DNA of 64,000 nt. Origin: Psammoneis japonica. Taxonomy: Eukaryota. Position 1 is the first letter of the stretch. Each line of letters starts with the position of its first letter. A program made the position numbers and the translations under genes. This document shows, in pieces, positions 17,921 through 49,301 of the stretch. The notes beneath the pieces were generated by a model, which was not told where the DNA came from, did no database searches, and saw nothing but the letters and a program-made list of their open reading frames with translations. Location: contig QPGO01000044.1 in the NCBI GenBank assembly GCA_008632985.1, positions 62,001 to 126,000 on the forward strand. The letters run 5' to 3'.

Positions 17921-20900
17921 TCCAGCACCACCCACAGTGTGATGCACTTTTTTGAGGCATGCACCATTGGGAGGGTGGGTGGGGAAGGCTGGCTGTGGCA
18001 ATCCAGCCCTGTGAATCTTTTGGATTCATGAGGATGTCAGCATTTGGGTGCAGGGCAAAATTGCCACCAGTGAGCATGTTGTGAGCAAAGTTGCACATGA
18101 CAGGTTCTGCCCACAAGTGCAGGTGGCGTGCAACATTTCATCAGATTGCCAATGGCCCAAGAGCTGAGTGAAGTCTGCATTGACATTGGCACAGAGGAGT
18201 GCCATGGCACCAGCTGTGTGAAGGCACACCAAGCAGTGACATCTCAGGTGTTAAAGCCAAGATTTGCCAGATTGCAAGCAACAACAGCAGCGCACAAAGC
18301 ACACGTGACATGTCAGAAGGGGACACACAATGCCAGGCATCATTTTGAAAATAGATGCCAAGGGGTGTGTTGGGGAGTGTGCCATGAGATTGGAGATGTT
18401 AGACGCAGTGGACAAGTGCCTGGGTTGGGCACAAATTGGGGTGTCCCGAGTGGCCGAGTCCCAAAACTTTCCCGCGAATGCCATTCTTCTGCATGGTGAA
18501 AGTGAGAGTGGCAAATGTGGCAGCATCAAGCTGAGCATTGGTGGCTTGGAGAAGGTTTGAACAAATGCCACCTCTGGATGCCAGGCAGACATCAGCAAGA
18601 TGGACTGGTGTGGCATCGGATGGCGTGGTGGTGCTGGGATGCAGCAAACAAAAGAGTGTGATGGCAATCATGTCGGCAACAGCCTTTGCACCAGGGTCAA
18701 AACTGTTGGAGGCGGTGTGCATGACCCAGGTGAGGATGGCCACCGGGACCAGTTTTACATGGTTGGGCCTCTTTCTTGTAGAAACAGATTTGCCGGGTGA
18801 GGCAGAAATCCACGCCGCTTTGGGGTGTGCAGAGTGGGTCTGGGGACCCCATTGCAGCAAACATTTGGTCAACTGACCATTCAGCATGTTCAGCAGCATG
18901 TCCATGGATGGGATTTCTACATGGGGCAATGGCTCCTGTGCAGCATCAGTGGAGGAAGACTTGCAGAAAGACAACAGAGTCATCAATGTCTTGGAGTGGT
19001 GGGTCGAGGACCACAGTGGTGCAGAACTCACACACTTGTCCCAATGGGCATTGGCAGAGGATGCTCTTGAATTGGCAATGCCATGTGCCACAGCATGTTG
19101 CGCAGCATTGTTGAGATCACGAATGAACTCAATTCTGGTGGTGGTGTCCAAAGGTGCCAGGAGAGTGTCTGCGGGTGACAAAGGTTAAAATGGTGCAGAA
19201 ATTCATGGTTGGCCAGGGATTGCAGGTGTGAGGCATCATCATCAGCAGAGTTAAGGTGTCCTGGCCAGTGATCATGGAGACCAAGGTGCCGGTGGCAGCT
19301 TTGGTGGAATGCTTGGTGTTCTCAACAGCTCGGATGCTGGCTTGATGGTTGCAGCAGATCCTTTTTGTTGCCAGCACATCATGCCCAAGTTGTCAGTGCA
19401 GGAGAGGTTGGTGCACTCTCAAATGTCACAACAATCCGCCGCAGCATGTGATTGGATGACACTGCCTGCCAGTTTGAGGTCTGTGCCAGTGATTGGGCCC
19501 CAAGGGTTCTTGCATGTGGCAAGGTGGGACATGACACTTTTGGGAAAGGGGAGGCACCACACAATGGGGCCAGTGTCACATTGAGCACAGGTGCATCCAT
19601 TGCCAAAGCAAAGTGTGGTGGCACACAGGATGGTTGTGTTGGTTGGGAAGAGCATGCCCCCTGCTCCATGCTCTGCTGTGTCATGACAGCTGGTGACATT
19701 TGGTGTCAGCAGCACCAGCTCTGGGATGCAAGCTGGGCATGATTCAAGGATGGCCTTGAGCTTGCAAAAATTGTCTGGTGCCAAGTGGGCATTGGGCGTG
19801 AGGCAGACTTGTGAGTCTGGTGCAGTGTGGAGGAGGTTTTGCTGAAGTTCCAAGTGCAAATTGCATGAGCCCAGCACTCTGATGCTGAGGGAGCTTCTGG
19901 CAGTCAGTGATGGTGGCACGCTTTTTTGGTGCAAGGAAAAAGTCCTTGTGCAGCACAGTGCAAAGTTGTTCATGCTGACATGGTGGAAGGTGGAGGGTCA
20001 TGGACTGCATGTCAACAATGATCCAGCCCACAAGACTTCCTTCTGTGCTGACCAAGTGGCATCACCCTTGCAGAGCTTTTTGACAGATGCAGGCTCCTTG
20101 TGGGTGGCAGGGGTGGCAGAATCAAGTGGTCAAAAGATGTTGTCCAAAGCATGCAGGACGACCTGGTGGACATTGAGGCATGCGTGGCAGGATCCTTGAG
20201 AGGTGCCGATAAAATCATTGACACACACTTCAATGCAATGCAGACAATGATGGCGGTGGTGGTTTCAGTGGGGGTCTGGTTGCTCAGGGACAGGCACTGT
20301 GTGTGCATTGGAATTTGTTGGTGGTGGTTGGTGCTTGGGTGGTCGACCAGTCAGGTGACATTCCAAAGGGTGGGGAGGCATCTGCACTTTGTGCACAAGG
20401 TCCAAGTTGGCCATGTCAGCTGCCATCTTGGCAGCAGTGCCAAACAATGGTGGTAAGTTGGCCATTGGGAAATGGGTGGGAAAGGGCATGTGTGATCCAC
20501 AACAGGGTGTGGCCAGCAACCATGCTGTGGGACCACTCCAATGGGGCTGGGGTGCAGTCCTGGTGTGTTGCACACTTCTTCACAAGGAACAACCATCCAG
20601 AAACCCTTTTCCACCCTGCCGGCCATGTCTTCACACAAAAACTTGATGTGTTCACAGGCGGAGTTATGAGGTCCTCTGTCAACACTGGCATCTGGCTCAG
20701 CATGTGTCCATGGGGCATCAGTGATGGTGACTGGGGTTCCCTGATGCTTGAAGGCTGTCAGCAGTTGGTGAGCTGGGTGCCATTGGCTGTGGTTCAGCGG
20801 TCCCCAATCTCCTCTGCCACTGCAAGAACACATCAAGCAGCTGAGTCCTTCATGATGCAATGATGCATTGTCAGTTTTAATGTGCACACCCAATTCATCA

Positions 20901-23309
20901 TTGCAAATTGCAGCAGCCACATCCTGTCCATGTGTGGTGAGGCAGGTGTGCTGCCTTTTGAAACTCTCCACAAGTGGGGGTTGTGGATGTGCTGGTTGTT
21001 TGGCTGACACATGCAACAGCTCTTGCTGGCAACAAGTCCCCACATTCACACCATTGCCGAAGACCCATTCAGTCTCCCAGTGTTTCTCACCCCAGGCAAG
21101 GAATTGCTGCTGCTTTTTGTCATTGTGGTCATCATGGTGATCACAGCTGGAGCCACAGTTGGAGTTGCACTGCCCTTTGATGTGGCAAGGGTTGCAGCAG
21201 ATGTGTCTTTGGTTGTCTTTGGGCAGCTTGATCTTGTCCCAGGCACAATGCATTTTTACCTCACATGAGTGCACATTGGGGTGATTGTGCAGCATTGTGA
21301 AGCACAAGTCACAAGATGGGTTCTGAACAATGCTGTTGGTGCTGTGCAAGCAGAGTCCACAGGGCTGAGACTTGTGTGCTTGCCATGTCCAACTTGATGG
21401 CTTCCAATGTCATGCCAGCTGTGCTGGTGGGAAGCATGGTGGGTGGCAAGCTGAGGCACCAAAGCATTGTCCCCTCAGCTGCCTTGTGAATGATGCTGTG
21501 CCCCGTGAACAGGATCTCCTGGTGCACTGTTGCTTGAGACAGGAACCAATGACATGGCTCAACCTGTGCACATTGCTGGAAGTTGACAGGCAGGGTCAGA
21601 TGAAGTGTGTGCTGGTGCACCAGCTTGTCAGCACACCTGTCCATGTTTGTACACTGCAGAGTGAGCCACCACTGCACAATGTGGTGGTTTTCACCTGGGG
21701 TGGCAGAGCAGACAAGGCGGCATCAGTCATGTGATTGCATGGCTGCCTGCGCAGTTGTTGCCACCAGTGCCTTGTCCGGTGCCTTGAGCAGCTGCGCATC
21801 TTGTGGCAATGGCACTCCTGCTCCTCCATGGATCTGCGCATGCATTGCATTGTGGCAGGCAATTTGCTCAGTTGTGTGTGGGGTGGTGAGTCTGAACAAG
21901 AAAGGGTTGAAAGTTGCGCCAACTTGGTGATGAGGCTCACCATTGCTGGCAGGTTGAAATGCACCTGAAGGGCTTGACGCTGCTGGTTGATGGCATTCTG
22001 GACCATGGCCAGATGTCCTGTCTTTGGCGCGGGTGCCAATGCAGCCCACAGTGGAGACAGTGCAGCCTCATTGCATGTCTGGCACCAATGCAGGATCTTT
22101 GTAACCCCAAAGACTCCCCAGAACTCTGCTGGCATCTTGCCTCATGTGGCAGCCATGTGCCTTGCTCCTCATCCAACCGCTGCTGTCGCTGCTCTGTGGC
22201 AAGTTCCTTGATGGTGGCAATTGCAGGCTGGAACTGCTGTGGTTGGATCTGTGTCCTTCCCCTGTGGCCCTGCAGGTCTTGTTCTACCTTGCAATCAAAG
22301 AAACAGATTGGTGCATCATTGGGAGGGTGCATCATGGTTGGCCAAGGCTGCACTGCTGCTGACTGGAGCTGTGCATTCTGCATGGTGCAACACACAACCC
22401 ACAGGTGATCTACAAGTGGCTCCAGTGCCACAAGCTTGTTGGCAGCTGTGGCTGCTCAATGGTTCCTTACATGCATGTCCTTTGGGCCAAGGGGCACAGG
22501 CAGGAGCAGACAGATGAACCCAAAAGGCACAAACATTGCACCGCATCTCATCACCTCTTCAGAGTCCTGTGCATCAGCTTGCACGTGTGGGTGGAGGCCA
22601 TTCGGCACAGCCACAACATGTGCTTGAAGCATGTTGTTGTGTGTCAGAACCCAAGTCCCTTGACCAGTCAGAACAAACAAATTGTCCCCAAACTCCATGA
22701 GTGTGAACTGGCCATGTGTCAGATTGCCTGCAACAGCATGTGTGCCATCGTCCCATGGTTGTGCTGTCATCTCATGGTTGAGCCGGTCCCACCACAGCAG
22801 CCGGGCAAGTTGAGACATGATGCAACACCTGCGTTTGCCCTTCATTGGTGGTGCCATTGGTGTGCCATCGGGAGGTTGTCACTCGAAGCCAATGTGACCC
22901 TGCCTTGTGGCACACCTGGGTCACACCGTGATGCTCCTTGCGCAGGCACAGCAAAATCCAGCACAGCTTCAGTGCAGTCACCATGGTGTGGGTCTTGTTT
23001 GGTGTCTGACAAAAAATGGTCTTGGCAGTTTCACATTGCTGGTGGCACCACTGGGATGCCTCCCCTGGCGGTGGTGGTGGTGCGCGGTTGGGCTGGTCCT
23101 GTGAGGTGGCAGCGGCGCATTTCCCGCAGCTGCAGCTGGTTGTTGTGCTGGTGCTCGGCTCTGCCTGTGGTTGTGGCACCGCTGCATTTACGTTGGGGGC
23201 ATTCTGCCCCCCTTGTGCCCCTGGCACGGCTCTTTCATGTGGTGTGGCTCCTCCTGCGAACAAACAAGAGCGGAGGATGCTGTTGCTCTTGGTTGCTGTT
23301 GGTTGGGGA

Positions 23310-24325
23310 AACTACCTGGCAGCACGTGCACGTGAGAAGTTCACGTGCAATGTCACCCAGTGGCGCGGGGGGAGGGACAGACGTGGGGCAATGGTGGAAC
23401 GGAGTCATGTGGGTGGGAAAAGGGATGGATTTCGAGTTGGGGTTTGATGTTTGTGATTGTAGTTTGGTGGAGCAGCAGGTTAGTTGGTCAGCGAGCGATT
23501 TGGCATTCGCGAGGCTCAGGCTCTGTAGACCCCATTGTGATGGTGTTGAGGAGTGGTGGGTTGGGCCAAAGCATTCGGCAGAGATGGTTTGCCAAGTGGC
23601 GGTGGCAGTGGGGAGGATGGCAGATGGGGATTGTTGGGCGCAGGCGCACGCGGCGTGGGCAGCTGGGTGTTGAAAACAAGTTTCAGTGTTCCAAGGTGGG
23701 GCGGGTGGAGCAGGGATGGGGAGGTTTTGGTTGGTGCCAAAAAGAAGGCGGTGGGCGAAGTAGCCTGGAGCTCCTGGGTGGTCCATGGCAAAGGGAATGA
23801 GGTGGATGCCGGCGTTGTTAAGGGTGGATGTAAGGGTTGCTTCATGTTGGGTCTCGTGGGTTCCGTTGAACTTCCGTTTTGTGCTCACATGGTGTGCCTC
23901 GGAATGAGGGTTAAGGGTGGGGGCAGGCAAGCCAGGAGCAGGCAATGGGGGAGGTTTAGGGACAGTGACGTCAATGGCGAGGTGTTGGTGGCCAAGAGGG
24001 GAGGCAGTGGAGGCGGCTGGGGTGAGTTGGATGCCTGCGTCAGCAGGGTGTTTGAGGGGCGAATGAGGCATCAGATTGGCTGGTTTGTGGTGCGCGGCGG
24101 AAGAGTTGGCACAGATGCCGGAGAGTGGGGCAAGTGTTTGGAAAGCAGCGCAGAGGCCGTCGCGGATGGCGTTGGACATGGTTGTTTTGTGTTCGAGGGA
24201 TCGACAACAGAAGGCATGGTCACAGCATGGGTCAATGGTGCCAGAGCAAGAGGGGCAAGAGGTGGACTCGAGTTGGTGGGGCGAGATGGGGAGCCGCAGT
24301 TTGTGTTGCAGCATCAGGCAGAACT
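23310..24325 (-). mobile_element. 3' fragment of an RLE-type (CRE-like) non-LTR retrotransposon within the Ngaro 5' repeat
   Basis: LQHKLRLPI, CPSCSGTIDPCCDHAFCC..SNAIRDGL (zinc knuckle), HPADAGI, LAIDVTV, KRKF, LIPFAMDHPG: the pattern of a PD-(D/E)xK restriction-like endonuclease C-terminus. Confidence 0.7.
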
Positions 24326-24717
24326 GGGCCGTTGCTTTAATCTTGCGCGCAAGCGCGTTCAAATTTTCCAACGGCTGAAAAAAGTGACCCAACGGTCAGC
24401 GCGGGTCATTTCGCCTCGTCCATGTCACGAGGTGGGTGTCACAGCGCACCCAGTCGACAGGTGACGCGTTCATGTGGCTTCCACGTGTCAACGCGTGACA
24501 TCGTCGAAAACCGGGCGGTGAACGGCCGACTCGCATACATCCAGAAATTCAGAAAACAGATAAAAGATTCATTCAAAAAAGATCTTCTTTACAGTAGTAG
24601 GGCTATCGGTTCGCAATTACCAGCATAGCAGATAGCAGCAGCACCAACAACAAAAAACTGTTTGTGTGTTGACCCAGTCATCATCCTTGTTTATCATACG
24701 GTATTGTTATTCACACC

Positions 24718-35299: not shown

Positions 35300-37350
35300 T
35301 TGGCATTGGTGCCCATCATCAAAATGGCATTGCTAAGTGACCCACTCAATTTGTTGCTTCATGGGCATGAGCCATGCCACTGCATTCTGTCCTTGTGTGG
35401 TCAGATGCAACCAATTTGGAGTTGTGTCCATCATCTGTGACTCATGCAGCCTGCCTTTGGAATCATCTTCCAAAGGCTGACACTTGCACCACACCAGCAT
35501 CTGCAGGTGAAGGGCTGTCCAGTGCACGTTTTAGATCCCAAACCACAGGATGGCAAGAAGGTGCCAAAATGGGACCCACAGAGCAACTGGTGCAGCCAGT
35601 GCCTTGGTGCTTTCCCTGCTCACTTGGCTGATGTTGGTCTTGTTGATCCTGAACATGAACACCCAAAATGTCAGACCTTGATGCCACGTGGTTCATGACA
35701 GCCATTTTTCAACAGTGCCCAACAGCAACTCAAGCAGTTTTTTTCAAGACTTGCCTTTTTCCACTCTGAAGACCCTCTCAACTGTCTTTCAGCCTTTCAC
35801 AAAATGAATGGCTGACACCCAAAGAGTGCTGCCACTGCAACAACCACCATTGAACTCATGCACATCACTGCCGACAAGGCTCTGCTGTGCAGCATGCTCT
35901 TCCTGCTGCCAGCTCTTCCTCTTGCCTCTTCCATCACAGCTCCAGAGAGGGAGAACAGCAGCTGACTCAGGACATGCCACTCCATGGTCCTCAGAGTCTC
36001 TAGAGGGAGCAGAGCTTGATGAGTTTGGTGACAAGAGCAAAGATGAGTTGTCCCTTGTCAATCATCACAACTTGCCTGAAGATCTGGATTTCAATTTTGA
36101 GGAAGCAAAGCACATGCTGCCAGCAGCTTCAAATGCTCTTGCTGCTCATGCTTAGACTTGCAGTGGTGGCTGCACCATCAAGAAACCACATCGCATTGTT
36201 GAGTCCATGAAGACCAAAATCTGCACTTTTGACTGACTGCAAAAATTCCAAGCACTCTGTCAAGTCAGAAACATTGAGTGAGCATTTTCCAATGGCATTG
36301 CAACAGGAAAGTGTCATGAGTGCACTCAGATCAAAAGACTTGCTTGCTGTGGTCAATGTCTTCAACAAAAGCACCAATCAAGAACATGGCGCACTCGAAG
36401 AGATGCGCCCTTTGGCCCTTGCAGCTGATGGCAATTCTGCAGATGACCCAACTTGGTGAGAAGTCACAAGTGGACCTCATTGCACAGCCTGTCTTGAGGC
36501 TTGTGACATTGAAATTGATTTCCTTGTCAATGGAAATCAATGGAAAAGATGCCCGGGAAGAAGTCCACTGCCAACGCTGGATGAGCACACTGCCACCCGC
36601 TTGTGGCTGCCTTCAAATGCAAAAGACACCCTGGTGGGTCACCAGTCAGAAAACACAAAGCCCAATTCTGTGTCAGTGGAGATGAGCAACTGGAAGGCAT
36701 TGATCACTTGGACACTTTTGCACTGGTTGTAAATTGGACAACAGCCCAGTTGATTCTCACATTGTTTCAAATTTTGGAGCTGTCTCCTCCAAGCAAGTTG
36801 ATTGTGTCACTGCTTTTGTTCATGATCCAATTGACAAGGATCCAAAATGGGATGTCATGATGCTCAAAGAGCCAGAGCACTCTGGCTTGTGTGCACAGAT
36901 TCCACGAGGATGCTCCGAGCCTGACAAAGCATTGAAACTCAACAGGGCCATTTGTGGCCTCAAAGACCGCACAATCCCCCCTGCACCTTGAAAGCTTGAA
37001 GATGCTGGACTCCAATCTCAAGATGATGCGGATCCATGCCTCTTTGTGTCAGGTGAGGTCATCTGCCTTGTGCATGTTGAAGACAAACTTTTCTTTTCAC
37101 CGAAGCAAGAGCACATCGAGGAGGTGATCGAAAAACTCAAAATCGATGGCAGTCTGTCCATCAAAGTCGAAGATTCCGTCGCAGCAGGTTTTTCAGGCGT
37201 CCACATCGATCGCGACGCCGACAATGGTGCGATCAAGCTAACCCGGAGCGATTTGACCAAGCACGTCATTGATGCCATCCACCAAAGCCCGAACGCCTGC
37301 ACCAGCTGCTCCATTGGTCAAGGACACCGATGCAGACCCACCCATGGGTT
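35300..37350 (+). mobile_element. Decayed Ty1/copia pol fragment (integrase and RT)
   Basis: GIGAHHQNGIA, HAACLWNHLP, GCPVHVLDPK..DGKKVPKWDP, FKCKRHPGG..KHKAQFCVSGD, KQVDCVTAFVH, DPCLFV..ICLVHVEDKLFFSP. Confidence 0.92.
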
Positions 37351-38690
37351 GTAACGCAGAGTCCTTAAAGTGGCGCATGAGTCTGGGGATGGAAAAGCAG
37401 CACTTTGCACAGCTGTGCGGTCAGGAGACGTAAGCGCAGCAGGAGCATTGAGGAGGACACAAATGGGGACATGGAAAAATAGGCAACTTTCCTACATAAT
37501 CTATATTTTGCTACTCAACAGTGGTGCACGTCGGTCAAGAATGGATTGAATGCCCGATTCGCATTCTTTCGACTTGCACGCGAGGACCTTAAGCTCTTTC
37601 AAAATCTCGTAGTCATGACGATAAAAATGAGCAAGGCATTTTTCACCCAAAGATGATAGAGGAACGGGCTGCTGACTCGCAGAAGAGTGACGAGAAGCAT
37701 TTAACCCTACAGATAGATAATTCGGCGGGTTACAATCAAGGAGATGAACCCGATCGTTACGGACGGCCAGGTCGGAAGCATTGAAATAGCCCGAATTGCT
37801 GTTTACCCAAGAAATGATTTCGTCGATTTGAGATTTTATGTCAAAGCCTTTTTCAAGCACAATCGGCCGTAGTGATTGAGCTACGCTTTTCCAGCTGTCT
37901 CCTAGCCAATCTCCGATTGAAGACTGAGCATGTCCTATGTGATTTATATCATCGGCAACATGTTCTTGGTCACACAATGCTTCTGCAAGGAGGTTCACAT
38001 TGCGTTTGTACTTGTGAAAAAGTATTTCTTGCTCTTTATTTGGTCTCTCAATTGAGCCCTGACAATAGTTCTTTGGGTGTTTGTGACCTTTCCACTGAAC
38101 TCTCCACGGAGTACGCAGGTCTCCATCGGGGTTGCACAACATAATGGCTCTCCAATAAAAGGCGCTGACGAAGCGATCAATAGGATCCCGAACTGTGACG
38201 GCAAATAAAGCCCTGTCCTGAGATTCTGGCTTCAAACGTTCAGGACAAGGAAACGGATGACACTCCGTCGGATCAATCTTCCAAAACGTCTTGAATCGAA
38301 AGTTGAAAGTACCCCCTCCAGCTTTTCCAATGTGTAAGAGTGTGAATATTTCTTCCGGAAGTTGTATCATTTCCATACCTATGACCGGTTTCGATGCTCG
38401 AGAAAGTGAGCACGGATCATGTTTTCTACTGTCTTGCAACTTGATTGATTCATGTTCAGTGGTGCCTTCAAGCTTCTTTGACATTTCATCAGCATTAAAC
38501 AAGAATGAAATCGAAGCTACCATAGTAGCTGCACAAATAAATATGAATCCTTTAGATTTTGCCATCATAGTGAACGTACGACTAGAAAGGAACCAGAACG
38601 GTCTTACCGCTGTGAACGTTTATGATGCGTTGTGTTATGTTTATTTTCTTTCCGTCGAAAATAAAGTGGCTGCTGGCTGTGGGTTGACCG
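36890..38690. repeat. Segmental duplication, copy 1 (copia fragment plus sulfotransferase)
   Basis: Direct repeat of ~47459-49301. The shared right end is ggctgctggctg(t/c)gggttgaccg. Confidence 0.93.
37501..38568 (-). CDS. Membrane-anchored sulfotransferase family protein, copy 1
   Basis: Intact 355-aa ORF with an N-terminal TM segment, LLHIGKAGGGTF, VTVRDPIDRFVSAFYW and C-terminal FYRHDY. Confidence 0.85.
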   Translation of the reverse strand: MMAKSKGFIFICAATMVASISFLFNADEMSKKLEGTTEHESIKLQDSRKHDPCSLSRASKPVIGMEMIQLPEEIFTLLHIGKAGGGTFNFRFKTFWKIDPTECHPFPCPERLKPESQDRALFAVTVRDPIDRFVSAFYWRAIMLCNPDGDLRTPWRVQWKGHKHPKNYCQGSIERPNKEQEILFHKYKRNVNLLAEALCDQEHVADDINHIGHAQSSIGDWLGDSWKSVAQSLRPIVLEKGFDIKSQIDEIISWVNSNSGYFNASDLAVRNDRVHLLDCNPPNYLSVGLNASRHSSASQQPVPLSSLGEKCLAHFYRHDYEILKELKVLACKSKECESGIQSILDRRAPLLSSKI

Positions 38691-38771
38691 CACCTCGCCT
38701 CCTTGCTCGCTCGCGTTGTACACACGGTATGTTGGATGTAGGTTCCACTAAAACTGCCCTCGAAAATATTA

Positions 38772-41700
38772 TCGTTTAGTCGTGGCGCCAGAACCCCGGG
38801 TGCGGCACCCGTTTTTTTTTAAATTTTTTTAAAATAAGGAAATTATGCATTCGACCAAGAAATTACTGTTTTTAATACGGAACAATAGCCGTTGACAAAT
38901 GACACATGCGTCCGTTGAATCGATAAGATGTCAACACGATTGTTTACAATCATTTCGGGCCTCATATGTACTCTTACTTTAATAATTGAAGATCAAAATG
39001 AGGTTGATATACCCAGAAATGAAAAACCCGGGCGCCACGCCCTATTTCTGGTGACAGCTGTATCTATAGGCACCAGAGGGGGGGTGATATTTTGAGATAG
39101 TGACGTGTGCTTAGTTGAAGGGGGCGGTGCACTTCAAGTGCACTGGCATAGTTTCCGGTGCACAGCGGTGCACTGATAAGTAATTTTTGACTTTCTTTCG
39201 TCCCTAAGTAGCTTTGTCCAAAAGGTCATTCGAAAACTCGAGGGGCGCGCCAAAAGAAAATCATCAAAAACTCGCATTTCTCGTTCGCGAGAGAGAAAAC
39301 ACACACTCGACGATGACATCTTACGTTATTTTGAAGGGCGGCGGATTCAAAATAACGCAGCAAACCCGCTCTCTTGGTGAGTCGAGCTTGAATAAGACAC
39401 TGAAGAAGTACAAGCTTGACACAACGTCACCAAAACTTGCAATTACAGGAAAGAACAAAAAGACCGGCGAAGTAGGCACTGACGCTGTTGCGACTAGTTC
39501 TATTGCACGGTATGAACCCATATGGAGGCTTTTTCGTGACTTCTGCTACCTGATTGATGATTCTGAAAGTGCCATGCTGCCGGCACGTGACTTGTGTCCA
39601 TCAGATCCTTTTCCTTCGAATTTGGATACAGCAATCCAGTTTACTCAGTTCAGGACAAAACAAAAAGGCGAACCACTACTTCACAACCGCACGAACGCTC
39701 CTGTAAAGGACCGGTATGGAAACCCTATCACCTGCATTGGTGATTGGAAAGGTCATTCTTCCATTGGGCTCTTCCGCACTGCCATGAGCAAGCTTCACAA
39801 GCACTACGAAACGACCAATGGCGAATACCGAGAAATGTGCACTGCTTGTCATGAGATTGGCGAGGAGGAAGCCCGAAAGGGCACTGGATGCCGCAAACAC
39901 CCTGGTGATCCCCATTTCTGGCGTCGTGGAAACACCACCAAACATGAAGATTTCAAGGCTGCAATTGACCAATGGCAAGACTACGCATCAAACTACTACG
40001 AAGCTAGAAGTGCTTTTGCATTCTTGCCTGGCGAGGTGCGGGCTATTCGAGACTACTGTTTGTCACATAATGACAAGTATCATCTAATGCTTTGGACTAT
40101 CATTATTGTTGGTACAAAGTTATTTCTACGCTGTGAAGAAGTTTTGGAGATGACGGTTGAAAAGTTTGTCACCGAGTACTTCCAAGTGTCGGAAAATGCC
40201 GTCAAGGGTCTCTGCACCAAAATCCGTGGCAAGCGTGACGAGAAGGATCTTCATTTCATGATTTGGGACGATGAAGAATGTCCTGAATTCTCAGGAACTA
40301 TTGCTATTCTCCTTTGGATGCATTATTCCGGCATCAAGTCGGGCAAGTTGTTTCCCACTAGAGACGAGTTGGAGCTCAACAAGGAACATCACGACGAAAA
40401 TTTTCCATACGACTCGCTCCTGGATTTTTTCAAGTTTGCTTGCGAAACCATTCTGGGAAGAGACATTGATAAGATGTCAACTGAAATCATTGGAACACAC
40501 ATTCTTCGAAGGACTGGCTTTGCGTTTGCTGAATGGGGCTCTACGCGTGGCGGAGGGCGGCTGGGTGAGATGGCCGAAGCGAACACATTGCTGAGCGCTC
40601 GTCACAAGAATACATCAAGTACCGCGACTTACCTTTCTGACAGTGGTACACTGAAGGCTCTAGTTGATAGGGAAAAGGACAAGGATGCTCACCGTGTTGG
40701 TAAATGGGAGCCCATCCATATGAAGCATCTTTCTTCATTTGCATCCGTCATGGTAGACTCTGCCAGGTACCGCAAGCCTCTACCAGAACTTGCTGATTGG
40801 TGCGTGACGGAACTGCTTGGTGTGCAGCAGAGCAACTTATTGACTGTCAAGCAGCTGTTCACAAAAGCTACATCATACACCCCGGACTTGTCTGATGAAG
40901 AAGAAATGAAGCAGTTCTTGATTCGTGAGCTTGGATCTAGCAAGGCAGAGGTGGTGATGCGAATGCACGACAAGTCGGCTGCAGAAAGAGTGCGTGCTGC
41001 ACAGTCTACAACTTTTGAAGTACTCACCAATACCAACAGTGCAAGGGAGAAGCGAGCTGCTACTGACCCAGCTCAAGATGAAAGGAACACCAAAAAAACC
41101 AAGTCCACAGGTGATACCGTCGTACAGTTTGATCGTGACTACCAATCTGAATTTAAATCCACCAAGGACGCTGCTACCAAGGTTCAGGTATTTGTGGATG
41201 CATGCCAGGACGTGAAAGATCAGGTGCGCGCCGGTAAGTCCTTGGAAGATCCTATCAAAAGCTTTGCATATCGAGCCGCTAGGGTCGTACAGTGCCTTGA
41301 CGACTGCTACGACGGCAAGGTTGATTGTTTTTTGCAAGAGAATTCTGGGCCCCTGTCAAAGTTCAGGACGTGCAACAAGGGTGTCAATCACAAGCCTACA
41401 TTCGATATGGCAAAACTGTAAGAGGACAGGACTTACCAATACATAGAAATACATAGCGTTGTTCATCATTGTCTACAGTGGTATCGCGCCGTGCTTCACT
41501 CGTTCGCGTTTCGACGAGCGACTCTCAATTCTGGTGAGCGGCAGTGCCTCCGTTGCTTTTCTACGACTACAAGTACGACCAGGTACGATCAATACCACGA
41601 CTACCCACGACCACGCGTGACGTGTACTTCGGTCTATAGTATGCTCTGTAGGCGCCAGTACTGATTCTACGTGAGTGCACAGTGCACAGCACAGATGTGA

Positions 41701-41945
41701 TCTCTTGTAGAGTGCACACTTTGCCGTTGGTTTTCTATTGAGAAATATCTAGAACTAGACAGAGTATAAGAGGGTGGCGTTATGTTATATCGAAAGAGTG
41801 TTGGTAATGCCGAACAAAGTAGCCGAAAATATTAGTGCTCCGTATGAAAAAATCAATTTCTTGGTCGAATGCATAATTTCCGTATTAAAAAAATTAAATA
41901 AAAACCCGGGTGCCGCACCGGGGTTCTGGCGCCACGACTAAACGA
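38772..41945 (+). mobile_element. TIR-bounded element with TA duplication encoding a tyrosine recombinase
   Basis: TA|tcgtttagtcgtggcgccagaacccc ... ggggttctggcgccacgactaaacga|TA. Imperfect TIRs of ~110 bp (about 38772-38885 and 41835-41945) enclose one long ORF. Confidence 0.9.
39313..41421 (+). CDS. Tyrosine recombinase (Crypton-like), 702 aa
   Basis: Intact and intronless. Catalytic residues in order: R (KLFLRCEE), K (KIRGKRD), HxxR (GTHILRRTG), H (SARHK), Y (TATYLSD). CxxC..CxxH insert before GNTT. First ATG is at 39313; the track start at 39214 is TTG. Confidence 0.88.
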   Translation: MTSYVILKGGGFKITQQTRSLGESSLNKTLKKYKLDTTSPKLAITGKNKKTGEVGTDAVATSSIARYEPIWRLFRDFCYLIDDSESAMLPARDLCPSDPFPSNLDTAIQFTQFRTKQKGEPLLHNRTNAPVKDRYGNPITCIGDWKGHSSIGLFRTAMSKLHKHYETTNGEYREMCTACHEIGEEEARKGTGCRKHPGDPHFWRRGNTTKHEDFKAAIDQWQDYASNYYEARSAFAFLPGEVRAIRDYCLSHNDKYHLMLWTIIIVGTKLFLRCEEVLEMTVEKFVTEYFQVSENAVKGLCTKIRGKRDEKDLHFMIWDDEECPEFSGTIAILLWMHYSGIKSGKLFPTRDELELNKEHHDENFPYDSLLDFFKFACETILGRDIDKMSTEIIGTHILRRTGFAFAEWGSTRGGGRLGEMAEANTLLSARHKNTSSTATYLSDSGTLKALVDREKDKDAHRVGKWEPIHMKHLSSFASVMVDSARYRKPLPELADWCVTELLGVQQSNLLTVKQLFTKATSYTPDLSDEEEMKQFLIRELGSSKAEVVMRMHDKSAAERVRAAQSTTFEVLTNTNSAREKRAATDPAQDERNTKKTKSTGDTVVQFDRDYQSEFKSTKDAATKVQVFVDACQDVKDQVRAGKSLEDPIKSFAYRAARVVQCLDDCYDGKVDCFLQENSGPLSKFRTCNKGVNHKPTFDMAKL

Positions 41946-42049
41946 TAGTCCAACGGACGAGAGGGCCTCTGACTCATGCTACACGGCACCGGTGTGGTCA
42001 TTGGCGCTCAATGACAAAAAAAAAAAACCGTTGAAAATGATTCTTCCGA

Positions 42050-43545
42050 AGAGCGCAAGCAACAACTGGACAGCCAAAACGCCATCGAGGCTGAGGATGC
42101 CTTCAGCCGTTTGTCAGTTCGAACTTGGCTCGCAGGAACATCCATTGTGGTGACATGGCTGACCAGCAACCTGCTGCCAATGTGGCACAAAATGCACTGG
42201 CAGCCAGTGCTCAGAGCCGCGGTGTTCCAAGAAAACCAGCTGCCACCACTCTGGCAGCGCCTGGCTGCCACGCCCAAGACTGGGTGCATTGCAACCATCC
42301 AAAACACAGTGGACGAGCAGCGCCAAGCATGGAACATCTGCTTTGATGTCCCCATTTCTGTCAGCATGGTCACAAAATTGGTGCAGCTCACATTTGCCAG
42401 ACACAACATGTCGTGGGGCAGTGCAACACCAACTGTGGATCCCGCATGGATCATCACAAGGGAGTCACACTGAGGCAGACCAGGCAGTGCTCCTTGACTG
42501 GGGCACTGAGCATTGGAGGACCAAATGGGAATTTGGCAATGGGGTCGGTTCGGGGACAAATCACTGAGAGCCTCACATGCTGATGCCAGCAATGGAGTCA
42601 GTTCTGCCACCCCTGCAGGTGGAGAGTCTGCACGCTCAACAAGGCAACAACTGCCGCACACTGCATGGACAGGCTGTCACCAACACTGAATGAGACAAAC
42701 CTGGTGAGCAAACACTTGTTGAAACTTCTGCACTTTGTCAAAAAGATCTCAGTTGCCTCCTTTGCTGCCGCAAGAGAAGAGGAGACTGGGGAAAGCTCAG
42801 CAAAGCTGCAGGGCACTCAGCCCACAGGCTCTTGCACAATTGTTGAGCACAAGAAGCACCCATCACTGTTGCAGATCTTCCACAGACACCCCAAGAGCCA
42901 GAAGCTGGCATCAACAGGGGGCCTCACAAGCCCGCATTCAAGTGCATTGACCTCCTGTGGGAGGACATGTCTGACTGCATTGAGAAAGGTTTTTGGGTCA
43001 TGCTGCCACATGATGAGATCAAGCATGAAGAGGGGCTGCACATCAGCCCAATCGGTGTTGCACCACAGCATGCGTGGCACCCATGGCCGACAGCCAACCA
43101 CTCTCATTTTGGAGTCAACTGCAGGCCACTCAACCAAATGCACGATGGCTTTTGCTGAGCACTCCTCTTCTTGGAGGATCGCGCACTGCTGCTGGGAGTC
43201 TCCTTCCCAAACCTGCCAGGGGAGCCACACCTGGCAGCAATCTTGGTGTGTCTGCCCATGCTGGGATGGGCAAACTTGCCACTGCTCTTCAGTCTTAAGT
43301 TCGGCAATGGAAATGGTGGCAGATCTTGCCAACATGGAGCTGCTTTGTGACACCAAAGCGCCTCCACATCCTCTGGAGCACTGCACAACAAGTCCACCAC
43401 TGCCACACCAATGGACACCTCCATTGGATCCAAATCTGGTGGTGCCAGTCCCATCCATGCCAGACCCAAACCTCAATCACACCAAGCAACGATGCTTGGC
43501 ACATGTCAATGTGCATGTTGATGACTTCATCAGCACTGTTCAAGT
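42050..43545 (+). mobile_element. Decayed Ngaro/DIRS-type fragment (gag and RT)
   Basis: LPPLWQRLAATPKTG..VSMVTKL resembles the gag at ~21900-22130. RT remnants IEKGFWVMLP..HISPIGVAPQ and VNVHVDDFI. Confidence 0.85.
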
Positions 43546-46500
43546 CCACCAAAGAACAAGCCCTCAACAAACAGCTGATCTTTGACCTGATCCAGGTCAA
43601 TCGCAGATGCTCCATTGACGTGGCAGCAGACCTGCACTTCTGTCATGATCTGGTGGTCCACTCATGTGCATCTCTTGCAATGAGGAGCAAAGGAGCCCAA
43701 GAACCTCCCACAGTGTGCAAATTTACCACGCTCCAGAGCATGGAACACACTGCAAAGACGATTTGTGGAAGATCCAACACTTCCTTCAGTGAGGACCCAT
43801 GCGCCACTTGATTTGACCCATCACACTTTGATCCAGAAGACAAACCGCCACAAGGACTTGAACAAGGGAACAGCAATGTGCCACAGATGTGGGCAGCAGT
43901 CAGCACCCCAGTGCCAGAAATGATGAGAGCTGCAGGACAACATGGAGCTGCCTTGAAACTTGCCACAAGCAGAGAGTCAATCTGGCTTGTCGATTTCGCC
44001 TTTGTCAATTACAGTGATGTTGTTCATGCAGCTGCGGACCCGATGCAACCAAGCTGGGAGGTCACCACAGAAGCTCAACAAGAACTGGATTGCTTTGCAG
44101 GTGGCATGAGAGTCACCGGAGGGGATGTCCGACCAGACAAATGCTGGTGGCATCTGATCGAGTTTGAATGGAAGAATGGGAAATGGGGCTCTGCGCAGAA
44201 GAGACAATCAATCCAACTGATGAAACTGACCCACACATGTGTGTCCAGGATCAACACAGGAACAAGAAAATGACACCCCGGCTGAACCCAAGAGAAGCCA
44301 AAAGCACTCTTGGAGTGTGGCCAGCTCCTGACAGGAACTGCAAAAAGTGGTGGAGACCCTCCAGAAGCAAGCAGAAGGGTGGGCAAATTGGGTCCACTCT
44401 GGACACCTCTCAAAATCAGATGCCTGGTTGTCTCTCACACAGCAAATCTAGAAAGTGCTGGATTGCTCCCTTCTAGCTGTCATCCTGACCTCCAAAGAGT
44501 GCAAGCACATTGAAGCCCCAATTCTTTGGCAAGGTCTGCCGAGAGCCAGACTGTGCCGATCGTTTCCGAGAGCAGTTCTGCAGGGCCCAAAATGGTTTCA
44601 AGGCCTCGCATTTGAATCAGTTGAGTTCACCATGTTCAAGAAACACATTGAAGCATTTGCAAAGCATGGGAAACAAGACTGAATTACAGGAGAGCTGACA
44701 AGAGCACTGCTCGAGAAACACAGGCTCAAAGTCAGAATGGGAGGAAGGTTTCTCAACGCATCATGCTCAGAGCATGGCATTCTAGCTGCTCTGTCCTGGA
44801 TCAAGCATCTGTGGAAATTCATGTCCCAGCACAACATCATCATCCAGGAAGACACTGCACAACTCCAGAAAAGACAAGCAAATGACTCCTTCCTGATGGA
44901 GAGGTTCACCAATGAAGGGTTCCGTGGTGCAAGACTGGCCACACTCAACAGGTGCCACTCCTTTCTTTGCAGGCCATCACCCCAGCAGATGTCACATCAG
45001 GAGATGGGAAGAGCATTCCAGAGTCAGCCTGAAATGGAAAACCTGACCCCTCCTTTCAATCACCATGTCACTGGCCCATCCAAGGCACACCCTCCACCTC
45101 TGACTGGAATCTGTGGAGGACAGCTCTTCATGCCACATGCATGAGAGCATCCAACATCTGTGTTGGGCAACTGCAATGCCCCCTGGGTGCATGGACCAAT
45201 GAGGAAGCAACAGAACAGTCATGGGTCTGGCTCCATTTGCCAATGGAAGACCGCATCTGTCACCATGATCTGGCCACTGACAACTGGAGCTCATGCTGCC
45301 CAGCAAGCAGGAGATGCACATGCAGAGCTCACAGGGGATTTGTTCCTGCAGAAGCAACACCCCCACCTCTGGACATTCAATGCACATGGACCCACAACAG
45401 AGGAAATGACACTTGGGGGATCTGCCACATGGGCTCCTCCCCATGTCTGCCGACAACTCAGGCTGTTGCACCCACCACCACTCTCCAGGAAAGGATGCTC
45501 CAACACCAGCCAGAAAGCAATGTTGCAACTCCAGCATCAACACAGATGATGATGCAGCCTGCATTGCCAATGCTGTGTGCAACGGAGCTGCCATTGCAGC
45601 AAGCGATGGCCAGGTGAAAGACACACTCAGGACACCTGCGTTTGCTGTTCAAGGACCTCTGGACAGCAACCATGTTGCAGGAACGAATGTGATCACAGGA
45701 CACCCAGGTGATGTTGAATCTCACTGGGCAGAAATCAATGGCCTGTGCACCATCATCTGCACCTTCAAAGACATTTGCACACTTCATGGCATCCAGGATG
45801 GCATGGCAGAAGCAGTGTGTGATGGCAAACAAGCACTCCTCAAGACATCTGACCTGCACAAGAGAGTCACGCCAAGATCAAACAACTTCAACACACCAAG
45901 TGCAGCAAAACCAAGCTCACAAAAAGCCCCATCAAGTGGAAGTTCTGGTGGGTCAAAGGACACCAAGACTCATGCCCAGATGCAAGCTGGACAGATGGGC
46001 CAGACTCAACATCGAGATGGACAATCTTGCAAAAGCCAAGTGGCAACACACAATGAGTGACGGAGCATCATCGTGTCATATGTCAGTGCAATGTTGAAGG
46101 CAAAATGTGGCCAGTTTGCATGGGTGGATGCAAGCTCTCCACAAAGCTGCTCAAACAACTGTTCAGTCACATCTGCAGAACTGAGCTGCTGCAATGCTGG
46201 GTCCATCAGAAACACCACTTCACACCGGAGAGCTTCCATCGCATTGACCAGGATGCCACAGACAAAGTGGCTGACCAACTCGGCACAGGATGCAGGAGAT
46301 GGCTGGCAAAGCACACTGCTGGAATCTGCGGTGTGGGCAAATGGCTCCAGTGATGGAAGACCCAGGACCACTCCAGAAGATGTCCAAGATGTGACGAAGA
46401 GAACAAAGATGCCAACCATGTTGCATCTTGCCTGGAGGCCATGGCCAAATGGAACAACTCCTGTGAAAACACACTGAGTGGATCGACAAGAATGATGCCA

Positions 46501-47000
46501 CTGCTGGACTTTCTGAAGCCATGCAAGATCACCTCCAGGCATGGCGCACAACAACGGATGCTTTCCAGCCACCGCCAATCCTTTTGCCAGGCCAACCTTG
46601 GGCAGGGCTGTTGCAGTGCAATGCATCATTGGCTGGGACAGACTCGAAGAAGGGTGTGAGGCCAAAGAATGCGCAGCAGTGCAGAGCAAACAAAATGGGC
46701 ACAGATGTGGATGAAGCAACTGCTGGAAATGCCACAATGCCTTTGGAAGCACCGCAATGACACTGCCCACCCACAAATGAGCAAACAAGCTGTGCAAGAA
46801 CTGGGCGCCCATGCAAGTCATCACTTCTGCCATGGCAGAGAACAGCTGTCTCAGAAATTTGCCCGCTGCTTTCAGGGACACCTTGTCACACTCCTGCCCA
46901 ATTGTCCAAGGATCACACCTTCAAATGATTGTGGCTTGCCAACGTTGTGGCCACCTGTGAAAGACAATCCAGGGCTCTCAGAGTTGGCACACACCTGCAA
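43546..47000 (+). mobile_element. Decayed non-LTR retrotransposon with RT, RNase H and zinc knuckle (Ambal-like)
   Basis: QALNKQLIFDL..DLHFCHDLVVHSCASLAM, QGLEQGN..PQMWAAVS, FAFVNYSD, RVTGGDVRPDKCWW. RNase H: AASDG, SHWAEING, VCDGKQAL, WVKGHQD, LNIEMDNLAK. CPRC..H...C near 46380. Confidence 0.88.
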
Positions 47001-47458
47001 GCAGCACAGCCGCAAATGGGGTGCAGCGCTGCCTCGAATCAACAAACCCATGGAAAAAAGTGACAACAACAACACCCCATCTCATCTGCATCATTGCTCA
47101 CAACAACAGGAGGACAAGAAAAAAAGTGCGCCAACTGCTGCACCTCCGACTGGGACCTCATGCCACAGATTTCAAGTTTGGTTTGTTCAAAAAGTTGCCA
47201 GCTGCACCGGGGACCTGTTCCATCAAATCTGGAAAACCGATGGCTCCATTTCTGCCATGCAGCATCCTGTGCCACAGCCCTGCTCAGGTGGGTCAATCAA
47301 TGAAGATGCTCCTTGACTGCATGTCAAGTGTGCCTTGTTCAAATGTGCCCCTTCAGATGCTGGTCCAGAGCACTCCTCTGTGGAGCCCTGCAGCCAGCTG
47401 GCCAAAAGCCCGCAGAGGGTGCCAGAAACAACTGGTGATTGTTGAGTTGATTGTCTGC

Positions 47459-49301
47459 CATGCACAGATGCCATGAGGATGCTCCAAGCATGGCAAAGCA
47501 CTGAAACTCAAGAGAGCTGTTTGTGGCTGCCTCAAACAAAGACTGTGCAATTTGTTCCGCCTTGAGTCAAAGCTTGAAGATGCTGGACACCAATCTCAAG
47601 ATGATGTGGATCCATGCCTCTTTGTGCAGGATGAGGTCATCTGCCTTGTGCATGTTGAAGACAAACTTTTCTTTTCACCGAAGCAAGAGCACATCAAGGA
47701 GGTGATCGAAAAACTCAAAATCGATGGCAGTCTGTCCATCAAAGTCAAAGATTCCGTCGCAGCAGGTTTTTCAGGCGTCCACATCGATCGCGACGCCGAC
47801 AATGGTGCGATCAAGCTAACCCGGAGCATTTGACCAAGCACGTCATTGATGCCATCCACCAAAGCCCGAACGCCTGCACCAGCTGCTCCATTGGTCAAGG
47901 ACACCGATGCAGACCCACCCATGGGTTGTAACGCAGAGTCCTTAAAGTGGCGCATGAGTCTGGGGATGGAAAAGCAGCACTTTGCACAGCTGTGCGGTCA
48001 GGAGACGTAAGCGCAGCAGGAGCATTGAGGAGGACACAAATGGGGACATGGAAAAATAGGCAACTTTCCTACATAATCTATATTTTGCTACTCAACAGTG
48101 GTGCACGTCGGTCAAGAATGGATTGAATGCCCGATTCGCAATCTTTCGACTTGCACGCGAGGACCATAAGCTCTTTCAAAATCTCGTAGTCATGACGATA
48201 AAAATGAGCAAGGCATTTTTCACCCAACGATGATAGAGGAACGGGCTGCTGACTCGCAGAAGAGTGACGAGAAGCATTCAATCCTACAGATAGAGAATGC
48301 GGCGGGTTACAATCAAGGAGATGAACCCGATCGTTTCGGACGGCCAGGTCGGAAGCATTGACAAAGCCCGAATAGCTGTTTACCCAAGAAACGATGTCGT
48401 CGATTTGAGAATTTAAGTCAAAGCCTTTTTCAAGCACAATCGGCCGTAGTGATTGAACTACGCTTTTCCAGCTGTCTCCTAGCCAATCTCCGATTGAAGA
48501 CTGAGCATGTCCTATGCGTTTTACATCATCGATAACTTGTTCTTGTTGGTCACACAATGCTTCTGCAAGGAGGTTCACATTGCGTTTGTACTTGTGAAAA
48601 AGTACTTCTTGCTCTTTATTTGGTCTCTCCATTGAGCCCTGACAATAGTTCTCTGGATGTTTGGGACCTTTCCACGGACCTCTCCACGGAGTACGCAGGT
48701 CTCCATCGGGGTTGCACAACATAATAGATCTCCAATAAAAGGCGCTGACGAAGCGATCAACAGGATCTCGGATTGTGATGGCAAATAAAGCCCTTTCCTG
48801 AGAATCTGACCGCAAACGATGAGGACAAGGAAACGGATGACACTCCGTCGGATCAATCTTCCAAAACGTCTTGAATCGAGAGTTGAAAGTACCCCCTCCA
48901 GCTTTTCCAATGTGTAAGAGTGTGAAATTTTCTTCCGGAAGTCGTATCATTTTGATACCTTTGACCGGTTTCGATGTTTGAGAAAGTGAGCACGGATTAT
49001 GCTGACTAATTCCTTGCAGCTTCACTGGATCATGTTTTCTAGTGCGTTGCAACTTGATGGATTCATGTTCAGTGGTGCCTTTAAGCTTCTTTGACATTTC
49101 ATCGGCATTAAACAAGAATGAACTCCAAGCTACCATAGTAACTGCACAAATAAATATGAATCCTTTAGATTTTGCCATCATAGTGAACGTACGACTAGTA
49201 GAGAGGAACCAGAACGGTCATACCGCTGTGAACGTTTATGAGGCTTTGTGTTACTTTTCTTTCCGTCGAAAATAAAGTGGCTGCTGGCTGCGGGTTGACC
49301 G
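47459..49301. repeat. Segmental duplication, copy 2
   Basis: Direct repeat of ~36890-38690, including the copia RT fragment ICLVHVEDKLFFSP. Confidence 0.93.
48078..49181 (-). CDS. Membrane-anchored sulfotransferase family protein, copy 2
   Basis: Intact 367-aa paralogue of 37501-38568 with the same motifs (HIGKAGGGTF, IRDPVDRFVSAFYW). Confidence 0.85.
   Translation of the reverse strand: MMAKSKGFIFICAVTMVAWSSFLFNADEMSKKLKGTTEHESIKLQRTRKHDPVKLQGISQHNPCSLSQTSKPVKGIKMIRLPEENFTLLHIGKAGGGTFNSRFKTFWKIDPTECHPFPCPHRLRSDSQERALFAITIRDPVDRFVSAFYWRSIMLCNPDGDLRTPWRGPWKGPKHPENYCQGSMERPNKEQEVLFHKYKRNVNLLAEALCDQQEQVIDDVKRIGHAQSSIGDWLGDSWKSVVQSLRPIVLEKGFDLNSQIDDIVSWVNSYSGFVNASDLAVRNDRVHLLDCNPPHSLSVGLNASRHSSASQQPVPLSSLGEKCLAHFYRHDYEILKELMVLACKSKDCESGIQSILDRRAPLLSSKI

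Follow-up and report, generated by a model that had tools for sequence, protein, structure and literature searches.

A Crypton-type tyrosine recombinase unit probably nested in a carrier with terminal inverted repeats in Psammoneis japonica

Cryptons, taken here in the broad sense, are reportedly the elements of Goodwin et al. 2003. They are described as having a tyrosine recombinase as their sole gene, no terminal inverted repeats (TIRs), and terminal direct repeats of 4-6 bp that match the target (PMC3212892; PMC13465315). CryptonF-1_cRei, an active element of Chlamydomonas, ends in CACCG, targets CAYCG and undergoes clean excision that leaves only the target (PMC9977147). We analyse an element at 38770..41947 of a 64,000-nucleotide stretch of the Psammoneis japonica genome (contig QPGO01000044.1, positions 62,001 to 126,000; this whole stretch is the window, and positions count from its first letter), in which a single gene for a tyrosine recombinase lies between long TIRs. 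An initial annotation, made from the letters alone, had offered two explanations: a distinct family of TIR elements mobilised by a tyrosine recombinase, or a Crypton captured inside a mariner-type miniature inverted-repeat transposable element (MITE). Our results argue for nesting, to which we give a probability of roughly 70%: a Crypton-type recombinase element would sit within a TIR-bearing MITE of about 540 bp, and the uninterrupted copies of that MITE would be the short form described next.

Reads of the same sample, from three runs that were all used as contigs, were mapped to window positions 36500-44500. Depths based on contigs are rough and absence from the contigs is no proof, and the parts of the stretch left uncovered by X2 were excluded as evidence. 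A 347-nt X1 contig (depth 205.5) joins 39061 to 41700, skipping 2638 nt, with four letters (ATCT) that fit on either side of the joint, while a variant of this short form in X1 (depth 50.6) joins 39062 to 41701 with three letters fitting on either side. The flank contigs have depths of 50-113, and the short form at depth 205.5 stands several times higher. The joints therefore indicate that the TIR-bearing outer parts exist without the open reading frame (ORF), with a single ATCT, and in several copy-equivalents. Within the ORF region the summed contig depth is 268-1083 per bin and 73 of the 212 contigs placed there are at least 99% alike, indicating that the inner part is multi-copy too. The joints divide the element as follows.

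39062..41699, plus strand: inner Crypton-type unit of 2638 nt, with the recombinase gene and its own conserved non-coding ends; exactly the segment absent from the short form.
39062..39065, plus strand: ATCT, left copy of the 4-nt direct repeat and putative crossover site (4-letter joint).
41700..41703, plus strand: ATCT, right copy of the 4-nt direct repeat and sole copy in the short form (letters and joint).
38770..39061, no strand: left part of the carrier, the TIR-bearing MITE of about 540 bp (the short form joins 39061 directly to 41700).
41700..41947, no strand: right part of the carrier (the short form joins 41700 to 39061).

To the left of ATCT the target resembles the joined ends of the unit, with ACAG.TGT before ATCT in both (compared by eye only), a resemblance that would suit site-specific recombination. 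A 7-nt repeat, TCTATAG (39063 and 41633), was also considered as the inner boundary and rejected, since the short form is actually joined at ATCT. Among the joints listed for the window's own element, none links the right end of the inner unit to its left end.

The boundaries given by the short form were compared with the DNA around related recombinase genes. A scan of metagenome contigs returned 60 pattern matches, eight of which encode relatives (L001-L008). Five of these loci, L001-L004 and L008, contain most of the gene and were analysed; the omitted L005-L007 are fragments of 1.2-1.9 kb. The contigs of the relatives are short and of uncertain nature, and DNA beyond the unit is present only in L002 (right side) and L003 (both sides). 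In all five loci the best TIR scores were no better than those of shuffles, and no inverted repeats beyond the unit were found in the right flank of L002 or in either flank of L003.

The locus L002, whose protein is 40% identical to that of the window, contains a 168-nt direct repeat (1-168 and 2750-2917; 99% identity, 2749-nt spacing). Judged by its sequence, this repeat is a head-to-tail junction at which the end of one unit runs into the next, in a tandem array or a circle. Past position 2917 the contig enters a tandem repeat of 20 nt, and AATATTC is common to this repeat and the last letters of the element. In this flank (2911-2970) the tandem repeat is present in three copies with 95% identity and has AATATTC in each repeat unit; the recombinase family may favour repeated targets. 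Near the two ends of the window's inner unit lie the following modules.

39100..39180, plus strand: upstream module, consisting of GTGACGT, CTTAG, four GTGCAC (39127, 39138, 39158, 39168; 10-20-nt spacing) and ATAAG; same motif order in L002 and L003.
41617..41687, plus strand: downstream module, consisting of GTGACGT, CTATAG, GGCGCCAG (41651), TACTG and a GTGCAC-A-GTGCAC pair (41675-41687); homologous block in L002.

The upstream order recurs at 202-270 of L002 and 167-235 of L003 as GTGACGT, CTTAG, an array of four GTGCAC spaced by roughly a helical turn, and CTAAG or ATAAG. The downstream block ends in two GTGCAC-like hexamers, one base apart, in the window, L002, L003 and L004. In the window the distance from the end of this pair to the start of ATCT is 12 nt, and that from the start of ATCT to GTGACGT is 38 nt; the corresponding distances for AATATTC in L002 are 14 nt and 40 nt. 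Measured from these motifs, the unit ends of the window and of L002 therefore coincide within 2 nt. When the right and left inner ends of the window are abutted, they are colinear with the contiguous junction of L002, with 130 of 232 columns identical. The inner left end matches L002 with a z score of 12.6 and L003 with 6.3, and the inner right end matches L002 (block 2750-2917) with 8.6, none of 200 shuffles reaching any of these values. The TIR-bearing outer parts have no similarity to the relatives' DNA, with z scores of 0.1-0.9 for the left part and -1.1 to 1.9 for the right part (over all six such controls, z -1.1 to 1.9, reached by 13 to 191 of 200 shuffles). Homology at the inner ends and none in the outer parts therefore means that the family-wide sequence stops at 39062 and 41699, exactly at the joint of the short form.

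Two further relatives bear on the layout of the unit. In L003 a 9-nt direct repeat, ACTACGTCA, occurs at 115 and 3183, 13 nt after the hexamer pair, and is only suggestive, as a 9-nt match arises in 57 of 500 shuffles. In L001 a module of the upstream type is found 3' of the gene, with about 150 nt left to the contig end, and the contig begins 47 nt before the ATG; this would fit a circularly permuted unit, with a tandem array as the alternative. As a separate observation, GTGCAC is enriched across the window (62 matches against 37.7 expected, 62 being reached by 0 of 100 shuffles), with clusters at 39127-39173 and 41675-41717.

The outer parts have features of their own.

38770..38887, plus strand: left TIR of the carrier, 118 nt (blastn against 41947-41833).
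41833..41947, minus strand: right TIR of the carrier (blastn against 38770-38887).
39016..39067, minus strand: degenerate third copy of the TIR tip, lying within the carrier in the opposite orientation to the left TIR (repeat search, 74% over 35 nt).

The two termini align over 119 columns with 88.2% identity (blastn, E 4.6e-34), and the terminal 22-mer occurs at only two places in the window, which are the two ends, against 0 expected from shuffles. For the third tip copy a local alignment gives 31 of 40 identical positions, and the left part compared with its own reverse complement gives a z score of 5.2. A reading of the left 300 nt as a small, complete MITE flanked by AT of its own was considered too, and rejected because the ATCT of the short form precedes carrier sequence and not AT. 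A GC-rich hairpin of 5-6 pairs followed by a T run was seen in each TIR (38797-38820 and 41896-41922), with a weaker third copy at 39030-39042; these came from a scan for bacterial-type promoters and terminators, which is uninformative for a eukaryote. A search of the window for further copies of the TIR, the element, the ORF or its protein found none. Taken together with the short form, the long TIRs and the 2-nt flank most likely belong to the carrier and not to the recombinase element.

The insertion of the carrier can be read from the other allele. A 615-nt X1 contig (depth 50.4) joins 38770 to 41945, with two letters fitting on either side, and continues into the right flank: it is the allele without the whole element. 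Compared letter by letter, the empty allele reads TATA and the filled allele T-AT-(38773..41944)-AT-A, which defines two features.

38771..38772, no strand: left copy of AT, single in the empty allele (target TATA; joint in the 615-nt X1 contig).
41945..41946, no strand: right copy of the duplicated AT (joint in the 615-nt X1 contig).

The initial annotation had placed TA on both flanks as a target duplication, for which the empty allele should carry a single TA. In the window TA is indeed found at 38770-71 and 41946-47, while the contig shows TATA and an AT pair. On the basis of this one contig, the filled allele is reproduced letter for letter only by a duplication of AT; a TA duplication needs an additional 2-nt difference between the alleles, which is possible, since a comparison of this contig with the window over 573 nt also shows 4 differing letters and 8 gaps. 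Read literally, therefore, this contig does not give the carrier the TA target-site duplication of Tc1/mariner elements. That the inverted repeat seems to extend by TAT/ATA is due to the TATA target, which is itself a palindrome. Filled junctions of the locus were not identified among the X1 contigs listed. As side observations, the X1 contigs differ from the window at full depth at many flank positions (36500-38200 and 41948-44500, for example 37564, 37940-37960 and 42012-42013), and their depth falls from about 93-113 on the left side of the element to about 50-57 on its right side. These differences and depths would fit two diverged alleles, the window's one having been dropped in assembly simplification, or uncorrected errors in the window.

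An allele that lacks carrier and passenger together, with a clean junction, raises the question of whether the two, once nested, were transposed here jointly by an unseen transposase acting on the TIRs in trans. This has a precedent in MarCry-1_FO, in which a Crypton lies between mariner-type TIRs (16-bp TIRs, TA duplication) together with its own DDE gene (PMC3212892). We consider it rather unlikely for this locus: two successive insertions on one haplotype fit the same data, the 4 letters and 8 gaps that separate the empty-allele contig from the window mean that the alleles may be old, and neither a second composite copy nor a transposase was found in the window.

The gene of the inner unit was characterized by conservation, domain searches and structural comparison. 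Its features are listed below.

39313..41421, plus strand: tyrosine recombinase ORF of 702 amino acids (intact ORF, conserved residues, AlphaFold model).
40129, 40231, 40498, 40507, 40603 and 40630: catalytic codons of R273, K307, H396, R399, H431 and Y440, respectively.
39838-39900: Cys/His cluster of the N-terminal domain.
41293-41391: second Cys/His cluster (C661, C665, C687, H693), in the C-terminal extension.

Every other ORF of at least 80 amino acids inside the element overlaps this one. Residue conservation was read from an alignment of 22 members of the recombinase family, in which R273, K307, H396, H431 and Y440 are invariant and R399 is conserved at 90% or more; in the CxxC..CxxH insert, C176, C179 and C193 show no variation and H196 almost none. 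The AlphaFold model of the 702-residue protein has a mean pLDDT (predicted local distance difference test) of 83.6. Aligned over both domains with VIA-align, it matches Cre/Tre with a Z score of 17.3 and a root-mean-square deviation of 4.5, 313 of 327 residues being aligned (model residues 23-456), while lambda Int, XerH and Tn1549 Int give Z scores of 12-14. The top Foldseek hits are also Cre, with E 5.7e-4 and a template-modelling (TM) score of 0.66, normalised to target length. His431 and Tyr440 are nine residues apart, a spacing that we take to be the same between Trp315 and Tyr324 of Cre. Modelled fold and catalytic residues both identify the protein as a tyrosine recombinase.

Sequence profiles tell less about the gene. 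Pfam found no DDE, reverse transcriptase (RT) or gag domain in the ORF, and none of the 22 aligned members matches a Pfam recombinase family, even at E<=5. A sequence-profile search of the PDB returned matches at chance level only (best E 0.53), an NCBIfam search of the recombinase returned nothing relevant, and a Pfam search of 16 longer or divergent relatives for fused domains (C48 peptidase, DDE and others) found 0 families. The integrase families of PHROG are touched only by the most divergent member, P0025 (E 1.3e-4 and 2e-4). The initial annotation is thus borne out in its main descriptive points: inverted termini of about 110 bp (118 nt, 88.2% identity), a single intact 702-residue ORF (39313-41421, plus strand), an R-K-HxxR-H-Y set with a CxxC..CxxH insert (conserved across 22 members), and no DDE, RT or gag (Pfam on the ORF, with no transposable-element domain in 53 other ORFs of the window). 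The profile and structure searches that it had proposed gave a divided answer, as the structure is a Cre-like tyrosine recombinase fold (Z 17.3) and no Pfam recombinase model matches.

The family to which this gene belongs is large. A word-indexed search returned 25 related proteins with 30-57% identity, mostly of 700-770 amino acids, and a profile search returned 1791 clusters (at 50% identity) at E<=0.001, 505 of them at E<=1e-30. Three pattern matches were obtained in viral contigs, with no relative among them. For 17 of the 25 related proteins the longest contig measures 2.5-3.7 kb, about one unit length, as expected if the units are collapsed multi-copy or circular ones, or if the contigs are transcripts. 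An alternative sees in the ORF a domesticated host gene or a dead relic surrounded by incidental repeats, and can point to the single copy in the window. We regard it as scarcely credible: an allele without the element exists, the unit reaches a depth of 268-1083 per bin against about 50-113 for the flank contigs with 73 of 212 contigs at least 99% alike, the catalytic residues are complete, and the family is widespread as well as large (1791 clusters at E<=0.001).

We propose that these findings reflect the following course of events. The carrier would first have inserted at TATA with a 2-nt AT duplication, through a transposase that is not encoded here. This non-autonomous element of about 540 bp, with its 118-nt TIRs, would then have provided the target of the inner unit. 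The recombinase would excise the inner unit as a circle in which its right and left ends meet, placing the GTGCAC pair 12 nt before the crossover and GTGACGT with four GTGCAC 34-70 nt after it. The circle would re-integrate by site-specific recombination at a short sequence that it has in common with the target, here ATCT, which would be left on both sides. The GTGCAC arrays could be binding sites of the recombinase or of an accessory protein flanking the crossover, or simply a promoter with a TGACGT box.

Several observations weigh against nesting. The element is present in a single copy in the window, where the co-occurrence of TIR and ORF cannot be counted directly. Gap repair that deletes internal sequence would leave a 4-nt microhomology as well, and the short form by itself is therefore not decisive. 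The empty allele lacks the whole composite, which may have moved as one unit. The homology of the inner right end is weak against L003 (z 2.0, 8 of 200 shuffles) and L004 (z 1.7, 15 of 200), and the array of four GTGCAC is not universal, being present in the window and in two of the five loci (L002, L003), lying 3' of the ORF in L001, and absent from L004 and L008. For the motif GGCRCCAG, 5.4 occurrences are expected in the window and 12 are present; 4 of the 12 fall in the 3.2-kb element, one pair in the TIRs and another at the inner ends. There is also a likeness between the TIR tip and 41633-41661, which does not exceed that of chance alignments. Finally, the TIR tips, when joined, give a perfect palindrome around AT. 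Given the shared GGCRCCAG and the likeness of the TIR tip, the carrier and the recombinase unit may yet be related.

These observations can be read as belonging to one autonomous transposon of 3.18 kb that extends from TIR to TIR, with the recombinase acting on the TIR tips and the short form being an internal-deletion derivative. The other allele, which lacks the whole composite and shows a clean overlap of 2 nt, the palindrome around AT, which has the shape of a recombinase core site, the GGCRCCAG common to TIRs and inner ends, and the intact ORF would all agree with such an element. However, the deletion would have to match the whole unit of the relatives within 2 nt at both ends, the relatives with visible flanks (L002 on the right, L003 on both sides) have no TIRs there, the TIR-bearing parts are dissimilar to the relatives' DNA, and a shared sequence of 2 nt is short against the 6-8-bp overlap usual in tyrosine recombinases (PMC3212892). 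We therefore judge a unitary transposon to be decidedly unlikely.

The palindrome of the joined tips, together with the GGCRCCAG and GTGCAC common to the carrier and the unit ends, is also the basis of a further possibility, in which the TIR carrier would be a non-autonomous partner of the recombinase family and the recombinase would mobilise both its Crypton-style unit and TIR-ended elements. If true, this would represent a class of transposon that looks like a cut-and-paste element and is driven by a tyrosine recombinase; we hold it to be improbable to a high degree.

Nesting thus remains the reading we prefer, and it most likely accounts for what looks like a new class of transposon combining long TIRs with a tyrosine recombinase. 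The initial annotation had named in advance what would speak against its distinct family of TIR elements, and both kinds of observation were made: TIR copies without the ORF, and relatives of the recombinase without TIRs. That proposal is accordingly not supported. Its other explanation agrees with the data as to the nesting, which fits the ATCT bounds and the ends lying within 2 nt of those of L002, and lacks support as to the mariner type, no DDE gene being seen and the empty allele, read literally, giving AT. Its suggestion that the element is young or active is plausible in view of the intact ORF, the empty allele and the many near-identical contigs, activity itself being a prediction only.

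A locus with TIRs and a tyrosine recombinase such as this one should therefore not be catalogued as a new class. What it reveals is a large Crypton-type family that escapes the Pfam recombinase models (22 members scanned), suggesting that annotation relying on Pfam may miss such genes. The GTGCAC arrays on both sides of the crossover, conserved at 36-40% protein identity, are concrete candidate binding sites of the recombinase or an accessory protein, in a group with essentially no known cis requirements. The polymorphic locus and the head-to-tail junctions in relatives make excision and circle formation directly testable.

Other features of the locus and its surroundings were noted. Contigs of X2, a run whose kind is guessed to be DNA, skip 40541-40632 (92 nt; 818-nt contig) and 41353-41436 (84 nt; 409-nt contig). 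On the minus strand both segments start with GTAAGTC and end with AG, and they look like two introns of a spliced antisense transcript; the spliced antisense stretch contains no ORF longer than 171 amino acids, and the first skipped segment ends exactly at the Tyr440 codon. The segments could instead be deletion variants among copies. The rest of the window contains ordinary cellular genes, including those for phosphoglycerate kinase, YbeY and polysaccharide pyruvyl transferase, with a weak sulfotransferase-like match adjoining, and a domain scan of 53 other ORFs there found no transposase, RT or integrase domains. Two stretches, 42000-47500 and 20000-24500, are richer in GC (0.51-0.57) and have long overlapping ORFs on both strands with no Pfam match; they may be the neighbouring transposable elements that the initial annotation had described as wrecked.

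Finally, we compared the locus with the described systems. Judged by sequence, the inner unit conforms to the structural definition of a Crypton, with a recombinase as its sole gene, no RT or DDE, no TIRs, and short direct repeats that match the target (ATCT here, AATATTC in L002); its length, 2.6-3.1 kb across the units compared, is also that of Cryptons. It differs from them in that no Pfam recombinase family is matched (0 of 22 members, E<=5), in the Cys/His cluster of the N-terminal domain, and in a C-terminal extension of about 245 amino acids with the second Cys/His cluster. The GTGCAC arrays are conserved in the ends here, whereas Kojima and Jurka report no nucleotide conservation between Cryptons of different species (PMC3212892). 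Pfam DUF3504, used as a test for CryptonA, was found in 0 of the 22 members.

Among the Crypton groups, CryptonS of oomycetes and Phaeodactylum (PMC3212892) likewise has no GCR1_C domain (by Pfam here), a conserved C-terminal region and terminal direct repeats of a few nt. It differs, in a comparison by eye only, in having HSFRRG and a Trp 11 residues before the Tyr, against GTHxLRK and His431 nine residues before Tyr440 in the present family. CryptonF-1_cRei resembles the inner unit in that its terminal motif equals its target motif and a single target is left after excision, like the single ATCT of the short form; however, CryptonF has a GCR1_C domain (PMC3212892), none being found here, and activity has been seen there while our case is read from sequence alone.

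Inverted ends together with a tyrosine recombinase gene are also known from the Tec1/Tec2 elements of Euplotes and the Starships of fungi (PMC3212892, PMC13465315). The Tec elements differ in encoding a DDE transposase as well, and the Starships in being giant, cargo-bearing and equipped with a DUF3435 recombinase, which is unmatched here: as a test for Starship captains, Pfam DUF3435 was found in 0 of the 22 members. Among the papers listed in searches of one library, none describes a eukaryotic element that combines long TIRs with a sole gene for a tyrosine recombinase, and in view of the evidence for nesting the present locus would not be one either. The nearest published arrangement is MarCry-1_FO of Fusarium (PMC3212892), which likewise has a Crypton recombinase gene between TIRs and a 2-nt flank, and which differs by its own mariner-type DDE gene, 16-bp TIRs and TA duplication from the locus described here, with no DDE gene, TIRs of 118 nt and AT.

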